DNA of 64,000 bases from Saccostrea echinata (lineage: Eukaryota), in contig NW_026889805.1 of assembly GCF_033153115.1 (NCBI RefSeq), positions 19,468,001-19,532,000 of the forward strand, read 5' to 3'. The position numbers and the translations under genes are program-made. Of this stretch, positions 1,790 to 7,700 are shown piece by piece (position 1 is the stretch's first letter; every line of letters begins with the position of its first letter). A model generated the notes under the pieces. It searched no databases. It was not told the DNA's origin and saw nothing but the letters and a program-made list of their open reading frames with translations.

Positions 1790-4700
1790 CTGTAAACAAG
1801 AAAAATAATAAATTATACACGTACATATTTATACTTGGTAACTTACGGCTTTATCCAATTGAAATAACAGATTGATTTATCTGCAAGGCTTGCTAAGTGA
1901 ATACAGATAGCACTAAATTGTTTTTTAATAATGCAAATATAAAATTTCAAATAATGATGTTCTAATTATTTCTTATGATTTTGTTTTCATTAAAATCTCA
2001 ACAAAAAAAAAAACTAAAAAAAAAAATGTCTCTTTTCTAAATTCTAATAAAACACCTATAAAATTGATCCCATTAATATGTTGATGGAAGTGTAAAGTAC
2101 AGTAATGTTGGCAAGGTAGATGTTAAAACTAGAAATATGTCCATAGGACATGAATGCACCACCCAGGGTATAATAGTAATGCAACATGAAAATTTGTATT
2201 AGTGTATGAAGTTTGATGAAAATATCTTGAATAGTTTCTTTAAAATTTATAGATAATAAATAATATAGTCAAAAGTCATTGGGAAGATCAAGTTTAAAAA
2301 AATTGGATATAGATGATAAATTCTCACCGAATTATGTATCCGTGCATAAGCTTACATAAAAATATCTTAAATGTTTTCTTTAAAACTTAGCAAAATGTAT
2401 ATTTAAGAAAAGTGAGGTTTAGGTCAAAGAAAAGGTCAAGGTAAAAAAATGTTGATGCAGTTGTCATGAATAGCTTACATCAGTATCAGCATATGAAGTT
2501 TGACAAAAATACCTTGAATGGTTTATCTAAACTGAGCTAATCAAAACACTAATTTAAGAAAAGAGAGGTTAAGGTCAAAGGAAAAGTCAAGGTCAAAAAA
2601 ATGTTGATGCAGTTGAATAGTCCTTATCAATATGTATCAGTATATGAAGTTTGATAAAAATATCTTAAATATTTTTTTTTGAAACGTAGCTTTGAACTGA
2701 GCTAAACGCAAAGCGCGACAGAAGGACAGAGGGAAGGAAGATGGACATGACAACACTATATGCCCCGGCCATATTCATGGCGGGGCAGAAAAAGTTATAA
2801 ACATGTACAATTAATTAAGTTGTAGGACTTGTGATATTACTGTATGTATGAGTAAATAGTGCCCTGCATGACAAACATCTGCACTGAAATTTGAATAAAA
2901 ATCAACAAATCAATTTTGAAAATTTATAAATTTCTCTTGTACTCTCTATAAGTCCATCTTGCACCATCCTAAATATGCATAAGCTAGTTGCATAAAATCT
3001 TTATTTTTTTACAAGAATGACACAGTAATAAGATGAAAAATAACCCAATGCTATGTCAATTAACTACCTCCTAAAATTAGTAGTTTACAAAACAGTGAAA
3101 AATTAAAGAAATGACCATAAAAATCTAAGCAATGAATAGCAGTGGTGGATCCTTATGACAGGTTCATCCTGTAATTTATCAAATACTGGGAGAGAACTAC
3201 ATGCCGCCTAGAATTTTTTTCTAACTTGTTTTTCTTAAATGCACCAAGAGCCGATGAAATTATCATGCAATTATAATTTTCAAGTTTTTAATTCAGTTAT
3301 TTTGCAATTTAATACAGCTGAAAACTGTCATTCAAGTAAGGATATGCAAATTTTTATCTACTTAAAAAAGATCTTTTTTTTTTTAAATTAAAATATAATA
3401 ATGACATTTGATGATTCTCAAAAAAAAAAAAAAAAAAAACCCAGATGGTTTGGAAACTAGCAAAATGTTGATTTAAAGAACACCTGTGTCCCAAATCAAG
3501 ATGACCAACAGGTCTAGAAATGCTCATCTGATAAATTAAGGCCTGAACAGAAATTTAGAGCATGTTTCATTATGACCTTGAAACTGGAGGGATGCCCATG
3601 AGTCAAATAATGACACACCTACTAGTGTAAATATTTACTATTTCTTTCTTACACCTTACAAAATTAAGATCAAAGTAGTTTTACTTTGATCCTCAAGGTA
3701 TTTTTGGGACTTGTTCAAAACACAGCAGAGACCATGATTTGAACAAAGAAGGCCATATTTCCCTTGATTACCATTGTCCTTAATCTTTGTGACGAGGTAT
3801 TGAAAATATGTTTGGCAATGGAGAGTTTTATTGATCTAGTCAGCATAAATATCATGGTATTAAATGCTCCTGGGAACTAACAGAGTTAGAGCTGATCCTA
3901 TGGAGAACTTGAGATGACATTCAAAAACAACAAAATAGGATGATAATCCATCTGTGGAATAGGGCTTTACAGTTTACCTAAATATTGGCAAAATTTACAG
4001 AATGAAAACAAAAAAAAATTCAGTGTCACATTATGATCATAAAAAAAAATGATGTAATTTTTCCACTGCATTAAATGTTATTTTCCATGTTATGTCCATG
4101 CCCACTGTCATCAGAGAAACAAATATTGATGCAGTTGAATAGCTCTCACTAATATGTTTCACCATATTAAGTTTGATTTAAATATCTTAAAAAGTTTCTT
4201 TGAAACTGAGCTTAAAAATAATTTAAGAAAAATGAGGTCAAGGTCAAAGAAAAGGTCAAGGTCAAACAAGAGGCCCAAGGGCCTTGAATCACACTTCTGA
4301 TAAATTGTACAGCCTATCACTTCTATTTGAAGCCTCTAAGTATCCTGTATATTTAGATAAAGCCTTGAAATTCCAAAGGTAGGTCATCATGACCTACATT
4401 TTAGATAAAACACTCTGATAACCCAAGTTAATTATAACCATAAAATTTCAAAAGTAGGTCACAGTGACCTTTCTTCAGTTGACCTACTTTGACGACCCAA
4501 GATGCATCAACTGACAAAATATGATGATTCCAAGCCAATTAGTACCTGAACTATTTAACAGGGTTCGACACTAACTTTTTAAGGCTTTAGTCCAGCCGGA
4601 ATAGTGCTTCATTACTTTTACTAGTCCGCACGCGATTTTATTAGTCCGTCAAAAAAAAGAAACATCAATGTTTTTTAACATTAATTTAACGTGACAATTA

Positions 4701-7700
4701 ATATATGTATTATTTTTTTAAATAAATAAAGTATTAACGTGAAATATATTATTCCACAGATTCATTGAAATCTCGCAATCAGCAAGTATGATCGTATTCC
4801 CGATCTCGTTTTTTTCTATTATTATTTTTTTTTTTTGTCTTTACATTACATCCAAACTGTCTAACATCTTTCTTAAAAGTGTCCTACTAAATAATGATCT
4901 CTAAAACCTTATACTTCATATCGATCAGTCGAAAAATTAAGCGCTGAATTGACCCGGCATTGCATAACTACCTGCCAAAAGCTAGAAATCTAAAAATACA
5001 CGCGGGGGTTTCCAGTAAAAGTTGTCGAGAATTGGACATCGGTAATTTATTCATATTGTTTTTCAGAAATTTTTATTGGTCCGTTCAGACTAATTAGCCA
5101 CATATTTTATTAGTCCGAATGAAAATGTATTAGTCTGAGACTAACGGACTAACGTTAGTGTCGAACCCTGTTTAATTAAAGCCATAAATTTTCAAAAGTA
5201 GGTCACAGTGACCTACTTTTCAGTGGACTTACTCCGAAGACCCAAGATGCAACAACTGACAAAGTTTGATGATTCTAAACCAATTAGTACCTGAAATATT
5301 TAATTATAGCCATATAAATTGAAAAAGTAGGTCATGGTGACCTACTTTCAGTCGACCTTCTCTGAGGAACCAAGATACATCAACTGACAAAGTTTGATGA
5401 TTCTAAGCCAAATAATACCCAAAATATTTAAATATAGCCATAAAATTTCAAAAGTAGGTCACAGTGATCTACTTTTCAGTTGAAGTTTTTTGAGAACCCA
5501 AGATGCATCAACCAACAAAGTTTTATGATCATAGGCCTTAAAATGTCCAAAATATGCCTCTAAAACTCTTTGAAATTGAATGCCTGCAAAGTTCAAAAAG
5601 TAGGTCACTGTGACCTACTTTTTAATAAATATGTTTTATTGCCCCAAGATGCATAATCTTACAAGATTTAATGATTCTAAACCTCTCAGTATTCGAATAA
5701 ATGACTTTAAATGTTTTGAAAAAGGTTAGCCATAAAATTCAAAAAGTAGGTCAAGGTGACCTACTTTTTACTTGACATACTCTGAGGGCACAAGATGCAT
5801 CAACTTATAAAGTTTGATGAACATAGGCTTTAAATTGTTCAAAATATGCCTCTAAATCATTTTGAAACAGAATGGCTGCTAAATTTGAATAGTAGGTCAC
5901 CGTGACCTACTTTTGAGTCAGCATGATATGAGGTTCTTAGATGCATTAACTGACAAGATCCTAGTCCTTATAGTTAACAAAATTTCAACATTCTAATAAA
6001 ATGTAATTTTTGATCAACTTCGAAGTGACATTGAGACCACGCCCTTTGCCCCAGGGCGATTCCCCTTGCAAATTTTAATCTACAACATATTTTCATCCTT
6101 GTGTGTAAGTTTGGTGATAATCTGCCCAGTGGTTCTTGAGAAGATTTTTTAACAACTAGTACTTTTGGTTTTATTTACCTAATTATCTTCCCTTGTTTAA
6201 TGGTCACAACCCTAGTTTATTACAAATGGGAGCCCTTGGGCCAAGGATACCCTGTGACAAATTTGACAATAATTGGCCAAGGGGTTCTTGAGTTATGGCC
6301 CATATTCTAAAAAGTGTACCCACACCACACAAATGGCCATAGCTTTAGCTCTTTGAGCCTTTGGCTCAGAAGTCAGCTAAAAATGTTGATGCAGTTGAAT
6401 AACACTCATCAATATGAATAAGCATAAAAGGTTTGATAAAAATATCTTAAGTTTCTTTGACATCGATATAATCACTAATTTAAGAAAAGTGAGGTAAATG
6501 TCTAAGGAAAGGTAAAGGTCAAAAAACAAATTACTGGAAGTTTGCTAGCATGATACTGACTGTAGCAAATAATGAAATATATGTGGAAGAGTGGGTTTGT
6601 TTTTAAAATAATAAATAAAGAATTATCATTTATTATCTCAAATGTTGTTAAATAGTTATCATTCATCATTCTCATCATTGCACTTTTACTTATTTAATTT
6701 TGCATGCTACTACTAATTATTCTGGCTGGCTGACCATGTCCACCTTTGATATATGTTGTAAGTAGTTTTATTGGCCAAGGGTTTTGGCAGTAAACTTTCT
6801 ATTATTCAGGGTAGCTATAGTGTGCAGGGGTACTCCTCACATGGACAGCCAACATTATGGCTGGTAGACGATTTTGTCTCAATTGGTTTGGATCAGTTAT
6901 AAATGACATGTTTTACAAAGATGATTTCTATGATCATTACACAGACCACATTCCATATGTTTTCTTTTTTTTTTTTTTTTTTTACTTTTTATCTTTCTAT
7001 TTTCTCACAATATAATTTCTTTGGTTGAAAAAGAGAATGAGTGAAGTGATGAAATAAAGTTCATTGTATTTTGTAAAGTAGTATTTTCACTTATCATATT
7101 GATTGTATGCAATGCTAGATGTAGATGTTGTAATTCGAAAGTATAATTTTATTATTTTTCACAATCAGCCATTGTCTTGAATTAAATATGGCTGAACCTG
7201 TGATTATTGTTCTATATAGGTTGATTTGTAAATATCTGAACTTGCAGATACCTGCATAGTCTGCCTAATTCCATAAATTAGTACACCATAGCAATTACTA
7301 CTTGTTTATATGTTTTGAATATATTCTGATAAATTATTCATACTCACAGGAATTCCTATGTGAACATGATTTTTGAAGTTCTGTAATTTGTAAGAGTTAT
7401 TTCCCTTTTTATGCATTCTATGAATTCTGAATATTTAAAATTGGTTAAATCTATTTTTAGTAAAATCAGTGTCGATTTATGAGGACTGCATATAATTGAA
7501 TATATTGTTTGATGTCATTTACTTATTTCATTTTATTTCTTATTGGGCCATTTGGTTTTTTGTTTGATTGATTCCAGTGGAATGGGATCCTTATACAAAC
7601 TGTGTTGTTCTTCATCTATATAACCCGGTCACATATACAGTTGTTATAACAGGTTTCATGGAATACACATTTTTAAAAATGTTCTTATTTTTAATTTAGG

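Follow-up and report, generated by a model that had tools for sequence, protein, structure and literature searches.

An array of nuclear-receptor-type palindromes in an intron of eIF5B

We analysed a 64,000-nucleotide stretch of the genome of Saccostrea echinata (contig NW_026889805.1, positions 19,468,001 to 19,532,000; hereafter the window, with positions counted from its first letter), in which an intron of the minus-strand gene eIF5B carries an array of palindromes of the estrogen response element (ERE) type. The intron extends from about 9328 to 1789 and is bounded by minus-strand eIF5B coding exons at 9329–9439 (best PDB match eIF5B, E 1e-13) and at approximately 1721–1788, which confirms a location in an eIF5B intron, as proposed in an initial annotation of this DNA; the number given there, intron 14, is provisional. 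Upstream of the intron we recognised 11 coding exons; the ATG exon was not found among these.

The palindrome AGGTCAnnnTGACCT, an inverted repeat with a 3-bp spacer (IR3), is perfect at 4381, 4456, 5200, 5329, 5602, 5748 and 5894 and has one mismatch at 5456, giving eight sites, seven of them perfect, with a single site per repeat unit. All eight sites of the initial annotation were thus recovered with their positions and spacers. In the whole window there are nine IR3 matches compared to 0.12 expected by chance, and none of 100 shuffles reached nine. With their arms the palindromes occupy 4375–4401 (spacer TCA, in a short terminal unit), 4450–4476 (CAG, in a 128-bp class unit that is interrupted by an insertion), 5194–5220 (CAG, with complete AAAAGT/ACTTTT arms), 5323–5349 (TGG), 5450–5476 (CAG, the site with one mismatch), 5596–5622 (CTG) and 5742–5768 (AGG), both in 146-bp class units, and 5888–5914 (CCG), in the final unit ahead of the 5′ module described below. 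Their start-to-start distances are 75, 744, 129, 127, 146, 146 and 146 bp, the 744-bp distance being one unit plus a 612-bp element with terminal inverted repeats (TIRs) and a 5-bp TTTAA target duplication. This insertion, at 4559–5170, resembles a miniature inverted-repeat transposable element (MITE), with 17-bp TIRs and CAGGG ends; one sequence contig skips 4553–5171, the MITE interval, and one further copy of the TIR was found at another genomic locus.

The array is the centre of a non-autonomous Helentron

The IR3 array is the centre of a non-autonomous Helentron (HINE) at 4266–6383 on the minus strand, inserted in a T run in the same sense as eIF5B. We used the definition of a HINE as an element with a 5′ subterminal inverted repeat (subTIR) and inverted repeat (IR), a 3′ subTIR and palindrome, and a T-rich target (PMC7492417, PMC4067079; here and below, cited papers are represented by the parts of their text that were available). 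The 5′ module (6348–6383, minus strand) comprises a T run, a 5′ subTIR at 6364–6377, where this copy carries a small insertion, and a nearby complementary IR at 6348–6358. The 3′ module (4266–4300, minus strand) comprises a 3′ subTIR at 4291–4300, degenerate in this copy, a terminal palindrome at 4271–4284 and a CTTGT end. In the left module just a short TG-rich stretch near 6314–6330 is a candidate for the microsatellite, a part of HINEs that has been described as variable or optional (PMC7492417, PMC4067079). Reconstruction of the empty site and comparison of repeat families place the insertion within a T run belonging to an older minus-strand array of direct repeats without spacing (AGGTCAAGGTCA; DR0, other spacings being named likewise), which occupies 4121–4265 and resumes at 6384–6526. 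The 146-bp DR0 unit of this older array is also present elsewhere in the genome.

An exact 23-bp terminal motif of the element occurs 922 times genome-wide. From 100 of these places we picked 60 copies by the terminal motif, of which 44 were full length, and all 44 had the 3′ subTIR and palindrome. The flank beyond the 3′ end starts with T in 38 of the 44 and with TT in 22, and the copies have T runs at their ends and no further target duplication. They are interspersed, have central tandem repeats and lack coding capacity; typically the 128-bp units vary in number and three units of 146 bp come after them. This anatomy and the 922 termini bear out the mobile-element origin that had been proposed for the array.

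Several other features of the window deserve mention. Between 4284 and 25682, inside eIF5B or next to it, there are eight distinct HINE ends, and all of them have the minus-strand orientation of the gene. Other tandem arrays with 150–172-bp units lie at 16871–17398, 19212–19512, 23632–25370 and 29351–30690, several of which resemble the Cg_HINE CL1 arrays of Crassostrea gigas. A lone perfect ERE outside the HINE family is found at 52673–52687, and broken retroelement pol-like fragments, judged by eye from reading frames, lie on the plus strand at 55100–59000. We also considered insertion tethered to existing AGGTCA sites and rejected it: the RGGTCA density in the flanks of 73 element ends was 1.5 and 1.15 per kb, compared to 1.8 per kb for randomly chosen T-run sites (p=0.69).

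One rolling-circle element supplies most perfect ERE-type sites of the genome

The 923-Mb genome contains 12,790 perfect AGGTCAnnnTGACCT sites, compared to 40 for the reversed control; for the human genome, 2,310 perfect 13-bp ERE cores have been reported (PMC2853111). In S. echinata 8,667 of the perfect sites (68%) carry the AGT/ACT arms of the HINE family, which is a lower bound for its share. Perfect arms accompany 374 of the 445 perfect sites found in the sampled HINEs, from which the share extrapolates to about 80%. Thus a single common rolling-circle element supplies most of the perfect estrogen-receptor-type sites of this genome. The initial annotation had named a spacer length that varies across genomic copies as evidence against its proposal. 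The length in the consensus AGGTCA-n3-TGACCT is fixed, with 3 bp in 8,667 sites compared to spacers of 0–2 bp in 64 and of 4–8 bp in 28. In unselected DNA, AGGTCA-type half-sites occur at 1.65–2.15 per kb (reversed control 0.5–0.7), mostly arranged as DR0, DR7, DR1 and IR3.

Constraint acts on source elements

From 57 of the 60 HINEs we aligned 523 units, anchoring them outside the palindrome, and clustered them into classes on non-palindrome columns. Among four classes, holding 518 units, consensus differences were found in 0/12 half-site columns, 0/12 arm columns, 2/3 spacer columns and 42/89 flank columns (p=3e-6). Among 11 classes (501 units) the corresponding counts were 0/12, 3/12, 2/3 and 54/89. 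Rare variants at non-CpG sites, our proxy for change after insertion, gave a different picture: they affect half-sites (76/6185, 1.2%) at about the rate of the flanks (604/42410, 1.4%; p=0.25, with p=0.02 for A/T columns alone) and of the arms (80/6182, 1.3%; p=0.75), so that purifying selection on the sites after insertion is not seen family-wide. From the invariance across classes and the near-neutral rare variants together, we conclude that constraint acts on source elements and not at insertion sites. The earlier proposal that ERE geometry is under constraint is supported by the unit classes, between which half-sites do not differ, and by the fixed 3-bp spacing. Half-sites that were no more conserved than the arms had been named as evidence against that proposal, and this is largely what we observe in S. 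echinata (1.2% compared to 1.3%; fixed differences 0/12 compared to 0–3/12).

The spacer is not free in sequence, being C-n-G in 347 of the 523 units, and CpG decay of CCG and CGG accounts for part of its variety. Spacer inversion as a sign of cruciform repair was considered and found unsupported, CCG and CGG being mostly on different unit haplotypes.

The arms match a second receptor element and lose pairing in a related family

The arms of the palindrome, AAAGTAGGTCA, match the ROR/Rev-erb response element (RORE), and therefore the receptor need not be an estrogen receptor (ER). The RORE consensus WAWNTRGGTCA (PMC5553892) is matched by 445 left and 444 right arms, each of 523, and AAAGTAGGTCA is contained in a human BMAL1 RORE probe (PMC3066191).

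Scanning metagenome contigs for the 25-mer palindrome yielded 63 loci, 50 of which belong to one HINE-like family in host DNA. This family has units of ~290 bp and a GTCT microsatellite, and its 5′ end is a TTAGCTC hairpin (exact in 4 of the 11 loci with the microsatellite). Its units can be aligned with those of S. echinata in the palindrome alone. For counts of pairing we used copies other than those found by the search. Here the spacer is 3 bp in 69/73 copies, and arm positions −1, −3, −4 and −5 pair in 58–63 of 68, compared to 5 of 68 each for positions −2 and −6. At position −2, which corresponds to the N in the RORE consensus, 50 of 68 copies have a C:C mismatch. In addition, there are 252 unpaired AGGTCA motifs, 48 of which are AAAAGTAGGTCA.

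Within S. echinata a sister family of 147-bp repeats, present at 425–1178 of the window (minus strand) and elsewhere in the genome, has a lone AAAAT(G/C)TAGGTCA half-site, with G or C at −2 and no palindrome, 40 bp (by eye) from a GATGYA..CAAGTTT box that it has in common with the IR3 units. A third repeat family likewise has the palindrome, and others have DR0, DR7, DR1 and TCAAGGTCA arrangements; the copies compared here, those of the metagenome family included, are not independent of each other.

RepHel frames and their upstream regions

We scored 150 RepHel matches, many in frames of 2,000–2,900 amino acids and many intact. The single RepHel protein that we scanned is of the Helentron type, with OTU, Rep, PIF1 and endonuclease domains, and lacks a C4 zinc finger (zf-C4). 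Among the RepHel loci compared, no autonomous partner with the same ends and subTIR as the IR3 HINE was established. A complete autonomous Helentron of 18.1 kb with clean ends was found in two copies (L269/L270/L350 and L293/L351/L352) that are 99.8% identical, which points to recent activity. Three further RepHel loci on two contigs (L282–L284 with L344–L349) belong to a large duplicated unit of at least 26–30 kb at 99.8% identity.

Within the 5–7 kb ahead of long RepHel frames, IR3 arrays are present in 8 of 30 cases, always in the sense orientation. Among control regions of 10 kb the count is 1 of 40, and among receptor-gene loci it is 0 of 30. With duplicates merged (three near-identical twin sets and two older pairs collapsed), the proportion is 5/24 compared to 1/40 (p=0.024). 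One RepHel pair has an IR3 array in common within an 18-kb unit of 89–97% identity, and both of its frames are open. As a specific enhancer of RepHel, however, the IR3 array was rejected. The enrichment is real but shared, since other HINE ends are also threefold enriched 5′ of RepHel (19.7 compared to 6.0 per 100 kb); the arrays in question are more diverged, and so older, than others; and their half-sites are not significantly spared (28/746 compared to 101/1886, p=0.09). That an IR3 array 5′ of the RepHel frame may boost RepHel transcription is possible, though weakly supported.

HINE ends upstream of RepHel frames are in the sense orientation in 27 cases and antisense in none. Taken with the sense-oriented ends around eIF5B, this suggests strand-biased insertion or removal. 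Most RepHel frames (loci L255–L294) have their ATG right after a pyrimidine tract and AG, and the RepHel 5′ region looks like a large intron filled with nested HINEs.

Host receptor sites that may aid the element

The genome of S. echinata contains an ER-type DNA-binding exon, with best matches to AncSR1 and ER, and a ROR-type DNA-binding exon. There are also exons that, on the basis of their P-box motifs, we take to be of ERR and NR1D type. A snail ER was reported to bind GGTCAnnnTGACC without ligand and its ERR apparently did not, in a study that calls it unknown how widespread EREs are in the genomes of molluscs (PMC3778743). ER-bound EREs are biased to C(A/T)G spacers (PMC2853111), a bias that the C-n-G spacers of the HINE units resemble.

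The explanation we favour, to which we give about an even chance, is that the IR3 palindromes are host nuclear-receptor sites that aid the element and not eIF5B. A receptor-site role for the units, as binding predicted from their sequence, is likely. ER dimers would occupy the IR3, and/or ROR/Rev-erb-type monomers each AAAGTAGGTCA arm. Eight to 15 receptor sites spaced by 128 or 146 bp could keep the chromatin of a donor copy open, allowing RepHel protein supplied in trans to reach the element ends. Copies with intact sites would become sources, and their daughter copies would then drift.

Several observations weigh against this explanation. The palindrome is not the sole conserved part of the unit, as 30 of 76 downstream flank columns are also near-invariant, and the unit classes are few, related and non-independent. 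In S. echinata conservation of the arms equals that of the half-sites, and the two together form a 12-bp stem. Any amplified repeat would be expected to show a fixed spacer length, high counts and rare indels. The metagenome loci were selected for having the palindrome, and they come from host DNA of uncertain evolutionary distance. To these are added the RepHel-upstream results given above, namely the enrichment shared with other HINEs and the half-sites that are not spared.

An unlikely alternative takes the motif as a site inside the element that is bound by the Helentron RepHel or by a non-receptor host protein, its match to receptor elements being coincidental. Many transposases bind repeated internal motifs. 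Confinement of constraint to source elements would suit such a site, as would the recurrence of the motif, with the same polarity, beside a CAAA.TTTG..TGCA box that HINEs from different hosts have in common. However, the geometries that recur are known receptor geometries (IR3, the RORE extension varying at its N, DR0, DR1 and TCAAGGTCA), and the RepHel protein scanned is without a C4 zinc finger.

The initial annotation had itself offered a hairpin as the alternative, and we considered that the 27-bp palindrome might work by folding into a hairpin or cruciform while the rolling-circle intermediate is single-stranded. The 12-bp stem is predicted in 3 of 3 folded sequences (z −1.8 to −4.1), and both arms are invariant over the four unit classes. 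Changes on both sides of the arms, however, number four, two of them compensatory, compared to 3.8 expected, giving no compensatory excess, and one-sided arm variants recur among the S. echinata units. The metagenome family has the C:C mismatch at −2 and many lone half-sites, and the sister 147-bp family retains one half alone. Because arm pairing breaks at the free position of the RORE, lone half-sites occur and compensatory changes are not in excess, protein recognition is favoured over a hairpin. Arm conservation does not rescue the hairpin, because the arms are also the 5′ extension of the ROR/Rev-erb element and a related family breaks the pairing; we regard the hairpin as improbable.

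We also hold it improbable that the palindrome has no function and that concerted evolution, together with palindrome self-repair by template switching, keeps the block uniform. The rare variants that strike half-sites at the flank rate are in line with this, and much of the spacer variation fits CpG decay. Self-repair would, however, fix symmetric changes, none of which are in evidence, and would not retain an identical 25-mer in the unalignable units of other hosts. Finally, co-option of the array as an ER-driven enhancer of eIF5B, the host option of the initial annotation, is very improbable: seven of eight sites are perfect at the locus and six aligned units have half-site mismatches at 1/72 compared to 11/180 in invariant flank columns (raw counts, small numbers), but the array is one of >900 copies, is nested in another repeat and is split by a MITE, and the host-enhancer reading is unsupported because, once inserted, copies accumulate changes at an approximately neutral rate.

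Comparison with known systems and implications

A structurally similar element is Cg_HINE of C. gigas, which has the same 5′ subTIR and IR, central tandem repeats of 140–180 bp, and 3′ subTIR and palindrome (PMC7492417). Its CL6 arrays (146 bp) also have AGGTCA repeats, with 442 AGGTCAAGGTCA in the supplement, whereas the IR3/RORE palindrome has no match in the CL1–13 array supplement, and unlike Cg_HINE the S. echinata element has no clear GTCY microsatellite. Receptor sites are not mentioned in the searched portion of that text (PMC7492417). DINE-1/HINE Helentrons likewise share the subTIRs, IR, 3′ stem-loop, T-rich/TT target and autonomous RepHel-endonuclease elements in the genome, and differ from the S. 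echinata HINE in that the latter has receptor-type palindromes in its central repeats (PMC4067079). On this anatomy, the IR3-bearing element is to be classed as a member of the HINE family. In literature on Helitrons or Helentrons with nuclear receptors, EREs or AGGTCA, on mollusc or oyster EREs, and on genome-wide bivalve EREs with transposable elements, as far as search listings outside subscription papers go, we found no description of receptor elements in HINE repeats.

By analogy only, the IR3 HINE may work like the heat-shock-element arrays of Caenorhabditis Helitrons, the closest known system. There too, dense clusters of a conserved transcription-factor site are carried by a rolling-circle element, which accounts for most copies of the site in the genome (about two thirds), and the authors speculate on a selfish origin (PMC6927752). 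The factor class is different, however, and in Caenorhabditis binding and gene induction were shown by chromatin immunoprecipitation (ChIP) and RNA-seq, whereas the S. echinata HINE is known from sequence alone. Human repeat-borne EREs, mainly in Alu, share the C(A/T)G spacer bias and differ in being mostly single imperfect sites in retroelements, as opposed to 12,790 perfect 15-mers, in tandem arrays, in S. echinata (PMC2853111).

A broader proposal, tentative and in our view rather doubtful, is that the central repeats of HINEs in animals are nuclear-receptor recruitment modules. The IR3 family, supplying 70–80% of perfect EREs, would then be the principal place where a ligand-independent molluscan-type ER binds in vivo and is sequestered, and would couple rolling-circle transposition to reproductive and clock receptors via its ROR/Rev-erb arms. 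The family-borne EREs, at least 68% of the total, provide a direct target for ChIP, and scans for promoter EREs in such genomes may often pick up HINEs. For the HINE family more widely, the receptor-site reading would offer a reason for the conserved boxes in its central repeats.

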